Source: Octopus vulgaris (Eukaryota). From it: DNA of 64,000 nucleotides. Below the pieces are notes generated by a model, which worked only from the letters and a program-made list of their open reading frames with translations, was not told the origin of the DNA and made no database searches. The stretch lies in contig OX597827.1 of NCBI GenBank assembly GCA_951406725.2, forward strand, positions 6,324,001-6,388,000, in the 5' to 3' direction. Positions 8,200-57,200 of this stretch are shown here, piece after piece (the first letter of the stretch is position 1; each line of letters opens with the position of its first letter). The translations under genes were made by a program, and so were the position numbers.

Positions 8200-9646
8200 A
8201 TAAAAGATAAAGCATTTTACAGGATTCTTCATTTCTGGCAGAAATTGAATAAATGTGTTCACTCCTTTAGGTTACTAAATCACATACATTTGAAATGATG
8301 ATAAAAAAAGACCCAGCATCGAAATAAAGATTTTTGAAAATTCTGAAGACTATATCATATCCAATACAGAAGTGAGAGAAATGACAGCCAATGGGCTACA
8401 AGTTGAAATTCAAATTTTGGCATTTTGTAAAGTTTCAGGAGTGTATGAGAGACTTTCTGGAATAGCTGTTTTGGTGCTGCCTGTTTGGCATTGTTGATTT
8501 GATACTGATTTATTTGGAATCGTAGGGGTCAGAAAACATGGGTAAATTACCTCAAGTGGGGTAGAAATGAAAGTTTTAGAGGTAATGAGGATTCATTAGA
8601 CGTAAGGAAAATTATATAAAAAAAAATGTGTTCCTAGTTACGACAAAAATTTTACTTCTGGCATGAAGAGGCAGTCAAAATGGTTCTGCCTTTTGCAACA
8701 ACCTACCTTTGCAAACAAAGATTTATCCAACCCAATGGACATAAAAACAAAGCAGTATAATGGATTGGATCCTGAAGACTGTATCCAAATTGCTCCCTAT
8801 CATCAAAATGCTCCAATTTTGAAGTAATCATAACAAAAAGGAAACGACATTATTTCTCCAAAACCTGAAGTGAAAAGGTTTCTAGAAAAATATTATTGGG
8901 TTGTCCAGAAAGATTGTGCTGATTTATACTAGCTTACATTTTGACTTATTTTAGAACATGGTTGAGTCCATGAAATAGGATTTCACTACACCTCCATTTA
9001 GAGCACAGTTTAAGCTATCTTTTCGTGGAAGAAGATTTATGTTCCTATAACCTGTGTTAATTCTGTAACCCTTTACAATGGAAGATAAGAAAGATCATTT
9101 TCAGCACTTGATGCTTTGGGAACCAGACAAAAATTGCTGCAGCTTGGCTGGGATATGTTACCCCACCCTCCATATTCACCAGATATTGCTCCTTTGGATT
9201 TCCACTTATTCAGGTCTCTGCAGAAAAGTCTTAATGGTAAAAATTTCAATTCCTTGGATGACGTAAAAAGATACCTTGATGAATTCTTTGCCCAGAAACC
9301 ACCTCAGTTCTGGAAAGATGGTATTTTCAAGTTAAAGGAAAGATGGAGACGCATTGTGCAACAAAATGGTTTATATTTGGTTGATTAAAAATGTAATGGC
9401 AGGTATTTATTGACCTTTTTCTTTCCTTTAAAAATCGGCACGAACTTTCCGGACAACTCAATAATTTATTTTATTGCATTTGTTTTACATTTTTTATATT
9501 TGTATTTGTATTCTCAATATAAATAGATTCAATAAAACTTTTGAATTCGAAGAACCTATGATGTTTTCCTTTCATATCAAGGGGGTAATGTTGGCATAAA
9601 TTAATAAATTTTGGGGTAATTGGTTTTAAAAATTTCTCAACACCTG
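8200..9646 (+). mobile_element. hAT (Charlie/Buster-like) remnant interrupted by the mariner
   Basis: 8662-8800 translates, with a frameshift, to EEAVKMVLPFATTYLCKQRF..MDIKTKQYNGLDPEDCIQIA, the hAT dimerisation motif. Left boundary uncertain. Confidence 0.7.
8896..9461 (+). mobile_element. Internally deleted mariner transposon
   Basis: Imperfect TIRs TTGGGTTGTCCAGAAAG.../...CTTTCCGGACAACTCAA flanked by TA. N-terminal MEDKKDHFQHLML abuts C-terminal LPHPPYSPDIAPLDFHLFRSLQ...KLKERWRRIVQQNGLY. Confidence 0.92.
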
Positions 9647-9758
9647 TTTTAACCCTTTAGCATTCAGATTTCTCTGTCAAATGTAATACTTATTTATTCA
9701 TATTGTTTTGAATTAATCATGCCCTATATTCTAGCAAAGAGATTGCAATGATATGATT

Positions 9759-10146
9759 GAATGGTTGTATACTGTCAATCTAACGTGAAAGTGACAGTAG
9801 GGGGTTACACCACCGTTGTTTAGCCCTAGGAAGCATCGACGCCTCCTGATTGCTTCGACACATTTTTCCTGTGTCCTTATATACATTTACGAAGGGGAGA
9901 CAAACACCCCCAGCAGCCAGGCCTGCATCTAGAGACACGCATGTTTCAGGATCATTGTCCTTCGTCGGTCTAGAGTAGCAGACGCCCGCCAGCCATTGAT
10001 ATCTGTCCCGATTCGCAAATGTATCTATTTCAGTGAAGTTTATTCACTGATTACCAAAATCAGAAATATTAAATTTCTAAATCTCTCATAGCGATATGTA
10101 CGGTGGTGGGGCGATAGAATGGTTGTATACTGTCAATCTAACGTGA
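9759..10146 (-). mobile_element. 358-bp hammerhead-bearing retrozyme/Penelope-like unit with 30-bp terminal redundancy
   Basis: GAATGGTTGTATACTGTCAATCTAACGTGA occurs at 9759-9788 and 10117-10146. Flanking TGATATGATTG/TGATCTGATTG looks like a TSD. The unit interrupts a MITE whose empty site is seen in the copy at ~19106-19332. Confidence 0.7.
9928..9974 (-). ncRNA. Type I hammerhead ribozyme (U4C core variant, GUC site)
   Basis: TCTAGA-CCGACGA-AGGA caatga TCCT-GAAA-CATGCGTG-TC-TCTAGA. Stems I and II pair fully, stem III is near-palindromic, and stem I extends (GTCTGC/GCAGGC) beyond an internal loop. Confidence 0.75.
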
Positions 10147-10402
10147 TCTGATTGTTTGTTTTTAAAATGACATTGTTGGAAAGAGGTGAGAGTCTATATC
10201 TGGTCAGTTTGAACATTAAACAGGTAGAATATTTGGTCTAGATATGGCCTGTTTAAATGTTAAATGGTTAATCTTACTCTCAACTGAATGTTTCTCTCTC
10301 TCTCTCTCCCCTCTGTTTCTTTCTCTGCGTTTAAGTGTGTGGGTATGCTTCTCTTTTTATATTTGAGGAGAGGGAATTGTGTTCAATTAATAAATTGTAA
10401 TG

Positions 10403-19010: not shown

Positions 19011-19420
19011 TCAATGATTCAGGCCCAATCATGGCTGAGTTTCTTTTACTGTCTTCTTTTTACTTGTTTCACTCACTGGACTTTGGCCTTGCTGGAGCAC
19101 CATCTTTAATCCTTTAGCATTTAAACCAGCCATATCCAGCCTAAATATTCTACTTGTTTCATATTCAAACTGGCTAGATCCAGCCTCTCACACATACCCT
19201 GCAATGTCATTCTAAAAGTAAATAATCATATCATCGACTTCTCAAAGCTGCAAGGTTATGCATAATTAATTAAAAACAATGTGGATAATTAAAAATTACA
19301 ATTGACAGAGTAATTTGGATGCTAAATGATAAAGGGTTCAGTCAAATAAATCAACTTCAGTTTCTATTTTTAAGTCTGGAATTTATTCTATTGTTATTTT
19401 CATTGAACCACTTAGCAATG

Positions 19421-48155: not shown

Positions 48156-50229
48156 AGCATACCAGTGTCTGATATAGATATCTGCAACCAGGGATGTAAC
48201 TAGAATGTGTGCTACCTGGGATAGCCTATGAATTTTCTGTCCCCACCTCAGGTCCTCAAATCTATACACACTTGTATAACAGCCTAATTAGTGTCAGTTC
48301 CATAAAAGCATTGCCTGGGATGGAGAACCACTTCCTCTACCCCAGTTACATTATTGGCTGTTACCATGGGTTTCACAAACTCTTCAAAGTTGGTAAAATT
48401 GACCCCATTAATATTTCTCTTAAGCTATTGCTAAACAACAGCTGGAAAAAAAAATAAAAACACACTTGTAAAGAAAGAGCTCCAGAGGGATAAAGTTCTA
48501 AGGGAGAAGAATTTGGCATAGGGGTTAGAGCAGGACCCGGGAGAACACAATGTGAGTGATGAGAAAAGATAAGTTAAGTTAGCAAAGTTACCCTTTCAAG
48601 TCATACTGATTCATAAGGGCTGGTTTCCTAGTTTTATGGCACATATATTCCCTACCTGCACTGGACACCAGTCCTTGCAGGATTACTCATTTTTGCCAGC
48701 TGAGTTGACTGGAGCAATGTGAAATGAAGAGTTTTGCTCAAGTACTCAATGTGTTGCCTGGTCCAGGAATCAAAGCCATAACCTTACAATCACGAGTTCA
48801 ACACCCTACCCACAAAAACCACGTGCCTCCAGACAAGGGGATTAAGTCGATTACATCGACCCCAGTGCGAAACTGGTACTTTATTTATTGACCCCGAAAG
48901 GATGAAAGGCAAGTCGACCTCGGCAAAATTTGAACTCAGAACGTAACATACAGACGAAATACCGCTAAGCATTTTGCCTGGCGGCTTACATTTCTGCCAG
49001 CTCGCCGCCTTCGAATAGTGCATATATATATTTATAAATACACATACACACATATGTATGTGTGTGTGTGTGTATTTGTTGGTGTTGGAGGGCTATATTG
49101 ATTTTGATCAAATATCTACAAAAGCCAAGGACTGAGGACTCTATAGTATCACAAGGAAAGGCAGAATGAGAGACAGAATGTTTACAGGTCAGTTGTTGAT
49201 GCATGTATGTTGACCATCAACTTCGTGCCAATCAGTTGGGTGTTCTTTGGGGGTGGAGATGTGGTCTTGGATGTCTCTGTGTGTAATCACTGCACCAATC
49301 TGGATGGGAAAGTGGTACTCCAAATTAGGTTACAACTTGGATTTATGTAGAGGGTTGGTAGTTGTGGACTGAAGTATTTTCTGGCTCTCTGAAGAGGAAA
49401 GCCAGTTGTTATGATGCAGTTTTTGTTATGTTGAGTATATACATTTGTAGACAAATTTGTAGTTGTTGTTTATTTCAGTATCAGACCTGGCCAAGCAGAA
49501 ACAAACCTATGACCAAAGGACACAGCAATCATGCCCATCACATCTTCTTCGTTTTCAGACACAATGTATCTACCAAGATCACATCATATTACGTGTCCTT
49601 TTCTAAAATGTTGTAGGATGTTATTTGAGGGAGATCTGGTTTCTATTTTAAGTAGGTTAAGCAGCCTTCTAGGGGCTCCCTTATTGGCTCTGTAGTCAAT
49701 GTAGAAAAAAAGTTTGTCTTTTGTAGATGTTTGATCAAAATAATACCTCACTAAATTTATGTTAATTTGATTTCTTTTTCATTTCCGCCAAGGTTGACTC
49801 AATATTTTTGCCTGCACACCTGCTGTGGTCAAGTGGCCTTCAACCTTCTGGGGTTGGTAAAATAAAACACCAGAGAAGCACTGGGACTAATTTAGTATTC
49901 TTGTAAACCATCCTAGATGCAAATGGAATTACATATATTAATAACTAATATTAACTATGTTTTACATCCTTCTATAGTCGATTAAATAAAAAGACATCTC
50001 AAATTGATTAAATTGACCATATTTTCCCCTGAAATTTGTGTCCTTGTATCAATGTTAGAAATCAATATTTTGTTCATAAACACTTTTATCCAAACGAATC
50101 ATGAACCTGTTCATCGTATCTTATGCGTAAATACCAACATCTTTGTGACTGTATGTGTTGTATGTAAGCTTATATAAAATTATAAGAAATGTCACTACTT
50201 CAACATGGCTGTTCTGTATGAATTGATGT

Positions 50230-50520
50230 TACTACCATTTTTTTAACACCAAGAGAACGCCTTCTCTAGCTTGTTATTGATGCAATCTGCACCCAGTATA
50301 TATATTGCAAGTAGGGGAGCAAACCCCCACCATCTTCTAGCAAGCAGGTGTCCACCACTGAGGATGAGCAAAAATAGCTCAAAACCAACTGATCTGGTGG
50401 TTCTATCCAGTCGCTAGAAGGTGGTAGGGGTTCACTCCCCTGCTTGCAATATATATCAGGTGCAGATTGCATTGATAACCCGCTTGAGGAGGTGTCCTCT
50501 TGGGGTTTAGAAAATAGTAG
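50230..50520 (+). repeat. Long imperfect inverted repeat with a degenerate hammerhead at its apex (50352-50400)
   Basis: Arms of ~100-120 bp (e.g. ATGCAATCTGCACC / GGTGCAGATTGCAT). Centre reads CCACCA-CTGAGGA-T-GAGC..GCTC-AAAA-CCAACTGA-TC-TGGTGG. Confidence 0.7.
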
Positions 50521-53500
50521 GAATGTCGGTTCAAACGGAACAACTATGTTGAAATGGCAACAAAAATTACTTCTTTATATAAAATCTCTTTTCCACCAAT
50601 CATTAACATTGGTTTCAGATTTTGGCACAAGGCCAGCTATTTCAGGGAAGAAGCTAAGTTAATTAACCCTTTTGTTACTGTATTTATTTTGAGATGCTCT
50701 GTGTTTCTTTCAATTACTTTAAATATAATAAAGAATTTAGTAAAATAACTTAGTTATGATTCAGCTAGTTTTAGGAACATAAATTGTGATTAAGGTTTGG
50801 TGGAAGATTTTAATTCAAAATTTATGAAAACAAAACATTTGTACTAAAGAGCCAGAGGTGGTTTCAGCCGGGTTGGTATCGAAAGGGTTAAACTAACCCC
50901 AGTGCTTAACTGGTACTTATTTTATTGACCTCCTAAGGAGGAAAGGCGAAGTCTACCTGCCAGTATTTGAACCCAGAACACAAAGATGAACAAAATGCTG
51001 TTAATCATTTTTCCCAGCAGGCTAACAAGTCTGCTAAGACACCACCTTTAAAAAATGTGGCCAGTAAGTCACTGGAGAGGGTCAAACTCCATACCTCTTA
51101 AGCTCCAGTTAAGAGCTCTATTCCATTAAGCTAAGTGACCCATGACCACTAATTATTAATATCAAGTATGTTTATGAAGCTTTTGATGTGTGCCTGTTTT
51201 TATTTGCAGACTTTGTATGACACTTGACCCTTTTTTGATCATGTTTCTAATGAAATACATTAATCCATGGAACATTTTTTTTTTCAATATTCATGAGGTT
51301 GGAGAGATTTAGTAAAAAATTTTTACTATATTGATGGCATATAGGATGTACTTTTTTCAAATATCATTCCAGATTCTATAAGTGAATTTTGGACTCCTAT
51401 AAGCTGTAATGCATTAAAAACATTTTTGCCTGAATATATGCAGCTGAAAGTGATGTACACCTCATTTATACCATCAAATATAGTAGCTTTTGCATTACTA
51501 AACTCACATTACTACATAGAAAATTAATGGAATAGAATGTTTTAACTATTATGCAATATGAACACCCCACACTAATTACATACAGTACTGGTCTTCTGCA
51601 AAGACTCCCCCAAACCTCAGATCTCATGGCAGATAGACCACTTAAGAGAAGAACTTCTCAAATTCATGAGACACTGTATCATTACTCGCAACAACAACAA
51701 GTAGATCAACAGTATGAAGTGGATGATTGTGCTCCAGTTGGTAGGAGAGAAAGACCAAGGGTCTAGAGTGGGTTGAACAATGATGAAGAGGTTTAGACTG
51801 ATATTTAAATACTTTAAAACTTTGTATCACAGATAAAGGGTTAATATCAGATGACTTGCTATCAAAAGTATTAAAATTGCAAAGCTGTAGATATAATCAG
51901 TTAACTTTAGATAGTTGTCATCATCATCATCATTGTCACTATTTTAATGTCTACATTTCCATTCTTGTATGGGCCAGGAGAAACTTGTTGAATTAGATTT
52001 TTCTATGACCAGATGCTCTTCCTTTTGCCAACCTTTACCTGTACCCAACTAAAGCAATATCTCCCTTAATCTTTTGAAAACAAACAGCTCAATGATTGGA
52101 CATGTTTTTGTGGAAGATTGTAAGCAAATGATACTGTATGAAAGTGACCTTTGTTTGAAATTAGTGTATTAGTGTATTAGTCAGTCAAACCGTCCGACCC
52201 ATGCCAGCATGGAAAATGGACGTTAAACGATGATAATGATGATGATGATATATATGAAGGGCTTCCTTCAAGTTCTATATGCCAAATCCACTCACAAGGC
52301 TTTGGGTAGTTTGAAGCAGAAATAGAAGAAATTTTCTCAAGGTCTGACACGAAGGGATTGAACTTGAAATTATGAAGTTGACAAGTAAACTTCTCAGTCT
52401 CAGTCAAGTCTGCACACGAACGAACACAAATTTATTTCATAAAGAAATAAATATATATCAAAACACACACACACACACAGAATTATATATATAAATCTAA
52501 ATGTCACTAATTTCGCTTTTGTTAGCAAATTTTTAAGAAGTTGTCATTCAACCAATTACATTGCAAAAGATATGTGTGATTTTTAACTCCACTGAACTCC
52601 CTGAGGTCCACAGCTGGCTAAGTTATAAGTAAATCAGTTTACAGCAAAAGGGACAGTTATTCATCTTCTATTACTGTAGAGTAATTAGAGACAAGACACA
52701 GTGCTTTGGTGAAATATTGTTTGCTGCTGTATATTAGAGGGTGATATTTTGCAAATTGATCAGATTGCTTTTGGTCTTTTTAAAGCAATCTAAAATATTC
52801 GTGAGTCTGTGTGCATAGTAGGAGCTCTGACCCAGATATCTGAATACATTCGTGTCTTAAACAACTTTGGGATGCAGTTTTTGGTTGTCATTGATTTGTG
52901 AGGCAGAGGCTGGGAATTTCCAAAGGTTAAGGCTCCTTTGGTTGTAGGTTGTTCCACAAGTAAAGACAGTAAAATAAATTGATTGCTAACTTTGATAAGT
53001 AATAACTGATTGAGTACTAGATATGGGCAATGACTAGGCTTTCATATCTCTAAGGAAACATGTGGTGAAGGTGCATGGCTTAGTGGTTAGGGTATTTAGC
53101 ACATGATCGTAAAGTCATGAGTTCAATTCTCAGTGGTGTATTGTGTCTTTGAGTAAGATTCTTATTTCATATTGCTCCAGTCCAGTCACTGTAAAAATGA
53201 GTAGTACCTGTAATACCTTGTCACAGTCTCACTGAATCTCCCTAAGAACTACATTAAGGGTATGTGTGTCTGTGGAGTGCTCAGCCACTTGCATGTTAAT
53301 TTCCTGAGCAGGCTATTTCATGGATTAGATTAATTAGAACTGTCATTGTAGTAACCGACAGAGTGCCAGTGAAACATGTTTTTAAGATTTCTATTCATAA
53401 TTATTAGGTATAAAAATCCAAAGACCCAGTTTTCACAAGCACTAAATGTATATGAATGAACAGAACATGTCTTTAGATTTTTTCAAAAACCAAGTTTTGG

Positions 53501-54285: not shown

Positions 54286-57200
54286 GTATGTATGTATGTA
54301 TGTATGTATGTATGTATATGTTGTATTAGATATTTGCTGTAGGGAATAAATCAGTAAGACACTACTGCCTAATATAATCATTTTGCTAAAGTTTATTTTA
54401 TTTTCTTCTTGCCTGTCACCACAATACATTTCATGGCTCCGTATTAATGGAGACAAAATTTAAAAAATTAACTCTTACTCGCTCTGTTGTTTCTCTTGCT
54501 AATGTTGACAGCAATTAAACTCATTAGACTGGAACTTATGCTAGCCATTTTCTGTAGATAAGCACAAGACTTTTCAGCCCTGAATTGGATGCCAGTCAGT
54601 TGCTGGTACTCATTTTCAGCTGAATGGATGAAAACAACATGAAATGAATTGTCTTCCTCTAAGGAACAAAATGCTGCCTAGTATGGGAATCAAGCTCGCA
54701 ATCTTATGTTTGTGAGCTCAACACTCTAACCACAGGGTCATGTACTTTCACTAGTAACAAATGCTAATATATTTTTTTATCTATTCTTATATGACTTGGT
54801 CAGAGAAGGTAAAAACTGTGCTTTTGACCCTTTTCGGAAACTCCAACACCAGTGGGAGGAAAGGAGAAAGTTATATTCAGACTGGAGACTTGGCCCAAAT
54901 GCTTCCAACAAAAGGGACCCTGCTAAATGCATCCATGGGCCAAGTAGTGGTCTTCATTTTAGTGGTTGATAAAATCTATTACCGTTTTTTACTGACTTTA
55001 CCAACATACTAAACTGTTAAATTATTGATTGAATGCTTGACTTTTCATATTCAATCATTAATATTTCATTATATCATTTTTGTATTTGGTCTGCCAGATT
55101 CTTGATGTGAACTCCTATGTTGAAACATATTTTTTAGTAAATTTGTAGGGTCATTATGCCAATTATAAACACATGCACTGGTTCTGTTTCACTTCTTTAT
55201 AATTTATTTGTCAATAAGATACCTATTTAACCAATTAACTAACAGAATGTTTGATTAATCATTTGGATAAATAGCAAACTAATTGACAAATGAATAATAA
55301 GAAAGTGCAATAGAACTTGTATATGCAACAAAATCCTTTATTATATTTTGAAAAAAAAAACTCTCTCAGTGAAGTGATGAAATCCAACTGCCCCATCCTG
55401 CTTATATTTACATGTAAACATGTAAATATGTACATGTATGAGTTACAATTCACTATTTTAGCCAATGGGAATACTTTAAAACTACAATGTACTTTCAGTG
55501 TCAGCACTGTGCCCAAATGGTCACACAAGCAATATCTTTGTCAGACTAGTATCGAAGAGTTGACCCTTTAGCATTTAAGCCAGCCATATCCAGCCAAAAT
55601 GTTCTACCTGTCTTGTGTTCAAATCAGCCACATCTGCCTACTCATACCTACCCTACAATGTCAACCTGAGAGTAAACAACCACATCATCAAAATCTCAGA
55701 TCTATGAGATAAGGTATGATTAATTGAAAGCAGTGTGAATAAATACGCATTATGATTGACAGAATTATCTGATTGCTAAAGTGTTAAATGTATCAATCTG
55801 TACCTGTTATATTGCAACTTCTTATACAAGCAATGGATAAAGAAAAGTAAAGTTGAGCAAATAAACCATGAGATATTGATTCTTTACCACAGAGAGCTTT
55901 TATGTGATCTTTTAACTAGCTAGAAATAGTGAACCAAATCACCCTTAAACCAAATCCCCCTTAAACCAAATCACTCTTCTTTAAAACGAATTAACAGTCA
56001 TGTTAAATGATAGAATCCCGGATGTCTTTAAAAATATGGAATAATCAGAATCGAACTATCTGGGGGTTAATTTAATATTCCTATAAAGCTAAGTTTGGCT
56101 TTGCTTTCCATCCTTCTGAGGTTGATAAAATGAAGTACTGAAACTCAATTAACATTACTAAACCTAAGCTAAATACTGATGTTGAGTACATATTCCTATG
56201 AAGATATTCTTGACTGAATGAAATTATCATAGAAAACTAAGGCAATGACTAACTTTGCTTTTTATCCTTTCTACATCAATAAAATAAAACGATTGTAGTG
56301 TTTTCCATCTTGTGGCCATGATTCTATCTCCAAAGAGTGAGAGCAGCCCTCACACTACATCAATTTTAGCTAAATCTCATGATGCTTTTTGCAGTCACTT
56401 GTTATTCTTACATACTTTTGCCTGTTATCTACTGATGGTGTTCCTAACAATATATCCATTTCTATTCAACTATTTGTGGAGAACATCAACTGCAATTTCT
56501 TACATCAAAACCACTTTGACCAGGGGTTAAGCAACCACTGAAATCTGGATATCTTTCAGCTAAAATATAACATTATTTATGTCTGTACTTTTAATGGAAA
56601 ACATATGAAGAATTGAAAGAGGCCAGATCTCAGAGTGTTTGTCCTCATAGATGAAATGATCATGATTACAAAGTGTTAGAAACGCCAATTTTTCATCTAT
56701 GACAGTTATCAGTTATTTACAATTTTGTAATGTATAAATGGCCAAAAAATTTTTATTACATGCAATCATCATTCACTTCTGTACAAAATAAACACATAGC
56801 TATTTGCAATAAACAGCATGAAATTCAGGCAATAACAAACACAATAGGCTCTTGTTCCCCAACAAAGTCCAGTTCTTGTCGAAGTGCTGTGACTTGTGTG
56901 TCTCAGTGACACTTAGAGCTATGCCAGTGACTCCTAGCTGGGCTTTCCTTGGGGGTAAGAATGGGTTTGGGTAGGGCCAACACTCCTACCTTGAAAATTG
57001 CAATGTTGCACAAGCATCAATGACATTTCAAAGCCAGCAAGGCTGAGGAGAGGAAGTCCTACATCCATAAATGAAATGGGAAGAACGGTCTTAGAGTTGA
57101 GAACAAAGGAGAAGTCAACGATGGATTATGCTCCATAGAGAGGGGAGGGTTTAAGTAAGTATACATTCTTGTTCTGTAAATTCCAGACAGTTATTATTAT

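Follow-up and report, generated by a model that had tools for sequence, protein, structure and literature searches.

How did a short non-coding insert, which carries the same sequence at both of its ends, come to interrupt a MITE in the genome of Octopus vulgaris, and from which RNA and by which enzyme was it copied? These questions were addressed in the window, the whole stretch of 64,000 nt that was analyzed, and in the related copies found across the genome. Positions are those of the window, a q coordinate gives the place within window 9759-10146, and the RNA sense is the minus strand.

The insert, its host element, and its target site

The following features define the locus:

9759..10146, minus strand: non-coding retrozyme copy (45% GC) with a length of about 1.08 monomers of 358 nt
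9759..9788, minus strand: first copy of the 30-bp terminal redundancy; on the outside it ends at "site A", a fixed RNA-3' end of the family (putative start of reverse transcription)
10117..10146, minus strand: second copy of the 30-bp terminal redundancy; variable RNA-5' end (putative stop of reverse transcription), with a 3-nt overlap with the target-site duplication
9749..9759, plus strand: left target-site duplication (TSD), 11 bp, TGATATGATTG
10144..10154, plus strand: right TSD, 11 bp, one mismatch to the left copy, TGATCTGATTG
9648..10271, no strand assigned: host MITE split by the insert, with the empty site in sister copies

A first-pass annotation of this DNA had described a 30-bp repeat with a period of 358, a TSD-like duplication of about 11 bp, a MITE with an empty site in a sister copy, and the lack of an ORF, and all four observations were confirmed. 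Positions 9759-9788 and 10117-10146 are identical over 30 bp, or 97% identical over 34 nt, and their starts are 358 apart. The 11-bp TSD, with its one mismatch, overlaps the terminal repeat by one base on the left and by three on the right. The MITE halves (9648-9759 and 10144-10271) are contiguous in the sister copies at 19106-19326 and 55555-55788, where the target site is present once. The TTAA-CCC ends of the MITE suggest an element that we take to be of the piggyBac type. Within the insert, the single ATG ORF of at least 30 aa is 51 aa long.

Other features of the window were also recorded. An older palindromic insert at 50198-50552 consists of head-to-head arms that are 71% alike and that match the retrozyme-family profile with E values of 1e-7 and 3e-5; it is likely the stump of a distant family without a ribozyme. 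At about 8900-9450, where a terminal repeat recurs at 8886-8928, the sequence resembles what is presumably a degenerate end of a mariner-type transposase. A tRNA-like match (31.6 bits) on the minus strand at 51067-51139 is possibly the head of a SINE.

A type I hammerhead with a U4C core

The putative ribozyme occupies the middle of the insert:

9921..9983, minus strand: extended type I hammerhead, with a UAC/U bulge in stem I, a U4C core, a self-complementary stem-loop III, and a predicted cut between 9934 and 9933

The annotation of a complete type I hammerhead with a GUC on the minus strand was borne out as far as the fold and the GUC are concerned. Stem I includes a distal part (9983-9978/9926-9921) and a proximal part (9974-9969/9933-9928), stem II is formed by 9961-9958/9951-9948 with GAAA at 9947-9944, stem III is closed by a TGCG loop, and the GUC at 9936-9934 places the predicted cut between 9934 and 9933. 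Completeness is qualified in two respects. The core at 9968-9962 reads CCGACGA, which is U4C in comparison with CUGAnGA, and stem III is absent from the best fold of the monomer: in the minimum-energy structure stems I and II form, while the ACG of the core pairs with the CGU of loop III, so no stem III is left. A search of Rfam returned no hammerhead match, even at E values up to 5.

Despite the caveats raised by Rfam and the best fold, the predicted hammerhead is well supported by sequence comparison. Among 23 related hammerheads of the same genome, 18 of 20 pairs showed double-sided changes, such as C3-G8 to U3-A8, and 92% of the cells in the alignment pair, as against 28-50% in slid controls. 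None of 500 shuffles matched this value, a count that is not a probability because the aligned hammerheads are related. The whole unit has a folding energy of -127.7 kcal/mol (z = -6.2).

The U4C change represents the state of the family rather than of one copy, as 78 of 90 family cores are CC and nine are CT. The CT cores of young copies probably reflect CpG decay, and two older copies combine a CT core with a perfect palindrome in stem III. In the families seen, stem-loop III is self-complementary, which suggests that these hammerheads may cleave as dimers, by analogy with the dimer cleavage described for animal hammerheads in PMC4209133. The U4C change is described in PMC3088659 as lowering activity in vitro yet still supporting viroid infection, and the predicted self-cleavage is probably slowed by it here. 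Unrelated motifs that resemble a hammerhead and likewise have the U4C core CCGACGA were met at L035 (position 200) and L047 (position 2716), and U4C may recur in the genome.

A dispersed family of non-coding retrozymes

A family search with the unit produced 2307 first-look candidates, the best 40 of which were scored and yielded 107 matches. The 29-mer of the ribozyme had 113 exact matches in the genome, and the reversed control had none. The copies are dispersed without arrays: at most two neighboring units were observed among the 100 of 113 29-mer matches listed, and neither these nor the mapped loci included a tandem array of more than about three units. The window copy contains one hammerhead, and the longest copies of the family (L006 and L008) reach about three units; an "active" retrozyme has been defined as two or more hammerhead units arranged head-to-tail (bioRxiv 10.64898/2026.07.22.740005). 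Unrelated to the retrozyme sequence, locus L093 (968-2752) is a tandem of three almost identical 594-nt units that includes an inverted piece.

The insert shows the features of a retrozyme, namely a type I hammerhead, a non-coding unit of 358 nt with less than 50% GC, a multicopy distribution, and a TSD of more than 4 bp. Judged by its sequence, it is a member of a dispersed, multicopy family of non-LTR retrozymes, and the earlier reading of a non-coding, retrozyme-like element is supported by the dispersed family, the hammerhead, and the lack of a real ORF. No ORF for a reverse transcriptase (RT) with a GIY-YIG domain was found within the unit or continuing from it. An ATG in the core that opens about 60 codons in some copies was considered as an ORF remnant and rejected, being closed in a second family and absent from the window copy. 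Contigs from four runs presumed to be RNA cover the unit unevenly; such contigs cannot show circles, strand, or level.

Fixed RNA-3' ends and inverted arms

Besides site A, the family has a second fixed end:

10053..10066 (about 10059), minus strand: site B, the second fixed family end, read through in the window copy

Ends were mapped in 84 locus records, which correspond to 83 loci (L065 and L111 coincide) and include 136 arms of at least 50 nt; the sample is biased toward copies resembling that of the window. After seven arms opened by an insert were left out, 129 RNA-3' ends were counted, with 59 at site A (q353-364), 53 at site B (q295-308), and 17 elsewhere. Hence, two sites about 57 nt apart hold 112 of the 129 RNA-3' ends, and a random circular permutation of the ends was rejected. 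The RNA-5' ends of the arms are scattered. The window copy has its RNA-3' end at site A, and the proposal that its redundancy arose from a random start on a circle did not hold, since that end is a fixed site of the family and only the 5' end varies. Fixed ends had been named as an argument against a retrozyme origin, and half of that pattern was observed, with a fixed RNA-3' end and a variable RNA-5' end. A second family that is only 61% identical ends at the two homologous sites. Arms longer than 364 nt accounted for 38 of 136 in this sample, which is biased toward long copies, and for 6 of 56 in a hammerhead-seeded subset, supporting the earlier view that reverse transcription can run past one unit.

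Head-to-head inserts were found at 46 places. Both outer ends fell at a fixed site in 30 of them, and the combinations were A+B in 29, B+B in one, and A+A in none. The two arms meet within -10 to +7 nt in 45 of the 46, with no unique flanking DNA in between. In L138 and L140, each arm contains sequence that is missing from the other; therefore, both were templated from RNA and neither from the other.

The targets are distinctive as well. A run of (TA)3 or longer lies beside 50 of the 112 ends, compared to 6.5% of control positions, and the flanks of the insertion sites have 14% GC, compared to 36% in controls. TSDs of at least 8 bp, mostly 8-16 bp, were found in 25 of 43 non-microsatellite inserts. 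The stretch between site B and site A corresponds to the "tail" of Penelope-type elements, and the combination of two fixed ends, a tail on one arm, inversion, and an AT-rich or (TA)n target is, by analogy, the Penelope "tail" signature.

A proposed Penelope-like route of insertion

The end pattern of the retrozyme matches the two internal starts of reverse transcription and the two-strand extension observed in vitro for a Penelope element of the anole (PMC11167929), and a tail on one inverted arm is described for Penelope insertions in PMC3846280 and PMC8557442. A Penelope origin of retrozymes has previously been argued without mapped start sites, and the mechanism was left open (bioRxiv 10.64898/2026.07.22.740005). 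The idea that Penelope machinery is used gains support from the two fixed sites, the arms with one A and one B end, and the AT-rich or (TA)n targets.

In the proposed mechanism, a dimer of a Penelope-like protein would nick both DNA strands and start one cDNA at site A and another at site B, in most cases from a single RNA source; the two products would be joined where each stops. The window copy would represent a single arm from site A that was extended 30 nt past one unit. In sum, the insert is very probably a non-coding hammerhead non-LTR retrozyme of a family that hosts site-specific L1-type LINEs, and it was likely pasted by a Penelope-like RT/GIY-YIG protein that would have begun copying at a fixed site within an RNA that was either circular or an uncleaved multimer.

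Circle or multimer as the template

Of 95 arms that extend to the ribozyme cut, only two end at it, which implies a circular template or an uncleaved multimer; a cleaved linear monomer was rejected. Opposite arms were discordant in 40 of 376 diagnostic-site comparisons, compared to 162 expected, which points to one RNA source for both arms, although later gene conversion between inverted arms could contribute. Same-orientation pairs, including separate inserts at L118 and pairs across inserts, were discordant in 50 of 217 comparisons, compared to 90.5 expected.

A narrower version of this explanation, plausible but somewhat short of probable, is that the template was a monomeric circle of about 360 nt, formed by hammerhead cleavage and ligation and copied for slightly more than one round from the fixed start. 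It would account for the seamless wrap-around, for the 45 of 46 arm junctions without unique flanking DNA, and for the fact that no long source array was seen, and it fits the strong rod-like fold of the unit and the circles described for mussel retrozymes of 350-390 nt in PMC7229834. For example, successive rounds in L008 differ at one of 325 sites and have three private alleles in common, as a circle would predict. In contrast, other loci mix their units. L006 joins units of two subfamilies that differ at 11 of 18 diagnostic sites, and the switch, between q267 and q325, lies away from the ribozyme cut, so end-to-end jumping at the cut is not supported there. Similarly, haplotypes are mixed between rounds in L007 and L013, and in L113 a unit with an insert is fused to one without. 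These four loci call for a heteromultimer or template switching, and since some multimers mix subfamilies, a single circle is unproven. The U4C core in 78 of 90 copies also weighs against the monomeric circle, as does the uncleaved RNA that was the dominant substrate in vitro for the anole element (PMC11167929). The 30-bp redundancy of the window copy does not decide between circle and multimer. Of the original suggestion that a 358-nt circle was copied for slightly more than one round, the run past one unit stands and the random start does not; the mixed units of L006 and L113 leave the monomer circle plausible at most.

Relation to resident Penelope elements

The octopus genome contains intact 781-aa ORFs encoding RT and GIY-YIG. 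The pLTRs of these resident Penelope elements carry a different, minimal hammerhead and have no similarity to the unit. A pLTR homologous to the unit was not found in 48 GIY-YIG loci by BLAST and a nucleotide profile (150 of 6136 candidates scored), where only separate, neighboring retrozyme copies matched, and among these loci the unit is not the LTR of a coding element. When the tail region served as query in a repeat search, the matches were all copies of the family, as judged from their coordinates.

One young Penelope element (L095, 744-5960) has an upstream ORF of 479 aa and a 781-aa RT and GIY-YIG ORF with a Cys linker, between identical 504-bp pLTRs with a minimal U3-A8 hammerhead, and appears to be Neptune-like, a label that we infer.

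That the unit is itself what remains of a coding Penelope element, a pseudo-LTR stump whose partial tandems arose during insertion, is disfavored and improbable. The insertion hallmarks are all of the Penelope type, and vertebrate retrozymes are related to pLTRs (bioRxiv 10.64898/2026.07.22.740005). However, besides the different hammerhead of the resident pLTRs, the arms continue into another unit (about 68 passes through an empty site, a rough count) and never into an RT or GIY-YIG ORF, and the only coding sequence inside them is a TSD-flanked LINE or ORF1-only insert.

Site-specific LINE insertions next to the hammerhead

The coding inserts share a target that is empty in the window copy of the retrozyme:

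9987..10000, minus strand: 14-bp target site (ATC-N5-CTGG-CG) used by an L1-type LINE and its ORF1-only relative; empty here but filled in other copies of the family

In the family sample, the target was occupied at eight loci, four of which were picked for their conspicuous spacing, compared to roughly 68 empty passes. A 1.64-kb insert interrupts several copies at q226-241; it encodes a zinc-knuckle protein of 450-463 aa (intact copies of 450 and 463 aa), contains ORF1 only, and has its 3' end in common with the LINE. It has its own TSD of 13-18 bp, many distinct junctions, and tandem pile-ups. A role as the element's own ORF between two LTRs was rejected on the basis of this TSD and of its presence in other families. 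The LINE and the 1.64-kb element insert with a 13-18-bp TSD, the end of which lies 11-17 nt 5' of the catalytic core, both in the family of the window copy and in two other retrozyme families. Among 29 ends of the 1.64-kb insert, 16 passed a strict hammerhead descriptor and four were in unrelated DNA.

The LINE, the 3' end of which was found in a retrozyme copy, is young: of 603 candidates, the best 40 scored were 96-100% identical. Retrozyme sequence directly follows 28 of 30 LINE 3' ends, and the other two lead to the target and another insert. The strict descriptor was passed by 18 of 30 LINE ends, compared to 49 of 3000 control windows. Full-length elements measure about 5.3 kb, are flanked by a 14-bp TSD (ATC-N5-CYGG-TG) in 15 of 19 loci, and encode a zinc-knuckle ORF1 and an ORF2 with APE and RT. 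The best solved match of ORF2 is L1 ORF2p, ORF1 is 28% identical to the ORF1-only protein, and the best named homolog, at 55%, is from Argonauta. No named Tx1 reference was among the matches of the LINE; it is L1-type, and its placement in Tx1, an inferred label, is probable.

The preference for hammerheads varied among relatives of the LINE. In two more distant subfamilies, all eight ends examined were upstream of hammerheads. In contrast, in a close sister subfamily (92% identical at the C-terminus) none of 12 ends was at a hammerhead, and eight were at another repeat. Together with the four ORF1-only ends in unrelated DNA, this indicates that the targeting is lineage-specific and not absolute. 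The other repeat has a weak ORF1-like similarity, and the sister LINE also forms head-to-tail arrays with a period of about 5.28 kb, many with an intact 1148-aa ORF2 (G000:C9:59205835-59248788 and G000:C5:29180615-29207720). At L129, a third variant of the insert 3' end, similar to an insert flank in L175, was met at the same target site.

The retrozyme is most improbably a SINE-like client of the resident LINE, or a satellite spreading by DNA-level recombination: LINE and retrozyme co-occur at many loci, but LINE insertions are flanked by 14-bp TSDs at a single site that contains GC, whereas the retrozyme inserts into AT-rich or (TA)n DNA, shows two fixed ends and inverted arms, and is dispersed rather than arrayed.

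Locus L189 is a two-arm A+B insert with a 12-bp TSD and a 5'-truncated LINE inside. One of its arms extends through the ribozyme, continues for about 1 kb in the LINE, and then stops; therefore, LINE sequence travels by the route of the retrozyme. A further LINE subfamily with an intact 1140-aa ORF (L271-L276) is present in copies that mostly have one junction and one ribozyme variant and that end at the fixed sites of a third family in (TA)n, which is possibly a whole LINE spreading as a passenger of the retrozyme.

The LINE endonuclease would recognize a site 5' of the hammerhead, and the LINE would gain a multicopy, low-harm home and a second route of spread. More speculatively, and with considerable doubt, these relations might form a three-tier chain of parasites: Penelope enzymes would spread retrozymes, retrozymes would host LINEs that sit 5' of the hammerhead and take advantage of its transcription and self-cleavage to form the ends of their RNA, and the LINEs would also ride the Penelope route, with units between two ribozymes potentially yielding protein-coding circular RNAs of 2 kb and 5.7 kb.

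The targeting of the retrozyme by a LINE is the new and most surprising result of this study. No report of LINE or Tx1 targeting of hammerheads or retrozymes was found in a literature search whose scope excluded most subscription papers and Repbase reports, and the main text of the octopus repeat paper (PMC13282606) does not mention ribozymes or retrozymes.

Significance and comparison with known systems

The movement of animal retrozymes has so far been proposed from co-occurrence and pLTR similarity. The octopus copies add start sites at nucleotide level and a strict rule of one A plus one B end for inverted copies, which translates directly into a prediction for a Penelope dimer and would be testable with the in vitro system already published. 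Whether spread requires cleavage is put to the test by the U4C core found throughout the family. With LINEs at the 5' edge of the ribozyme, self-cleaving RNA joins the list of site-specific targets, and the sister LINE subfamily, with its other target, provides a natural pair for mapping endonuclease specificity.

Like the metazoan non-LTR retrozymes described in PMC7229834, such as the mussel family of 350-390 nt, the octopus family has a non-coding, highly self-paired monomer of about 360 nt with less than 50% GC, one type I hammerhead of canonical size, and a TSD of more than 4 bp, and it coexists with autonomous Penelope elements. In contrast to the elements described there, the octopus copies are mostly dispersed, 5'-truncated, and inverted rather than in long tandem arrays, have a family-wide U4C core, and are known here from DNA sequence; two fixed start sites were mapped, and the portions of PMC7229834 drawn on here report none.

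Similarities to Penelope-like insertions, as described in PMC3846280, PMC8557442, and, for Poseidon PAc, PMC11167929, include a pair of neighboring 3' end sites downstream of the hammerhead, head-to-head arms of which one has a tail, targets that are AT-rich or microsatellite, and read-through of the ribozyme site. The octopus unit differs from those descriptions in having no ORF, a tail of about 57 nt instead of 30-40 nt, and a canonical instead of a minimal hammerhead, and the 48 GIY-YIG loci searched yielded no homologous coding partner.

The LINE resembles the Tx1-clade elements Tx1, Keno, Kibi/Koshi, and Tx1-Mar, as described in PMC4494074 and PMC4640811, in its APE and RT ORF2, its zinc-knuckle ORF1, its single exact site within a multicopy target, its tandem pile-ups one TSD apart, and the target switches between sister families. 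The targets described for those elements are transposons, snRNA, 5S, satellites of a nature not given, and microsatellites, whereas the octopus target is a hammerhead retrozyme. Finally, the ORF1-only insert is comparable to HAL1 (half-L1), as described in PMC5753468, in encoding only an ORF1-like protein and in having its 3' end and target in common with a LINE; it is distinguished by an identity of 28% to the partner ORF1, by its site specificity, and by its occurrence in a non-mammalian host.
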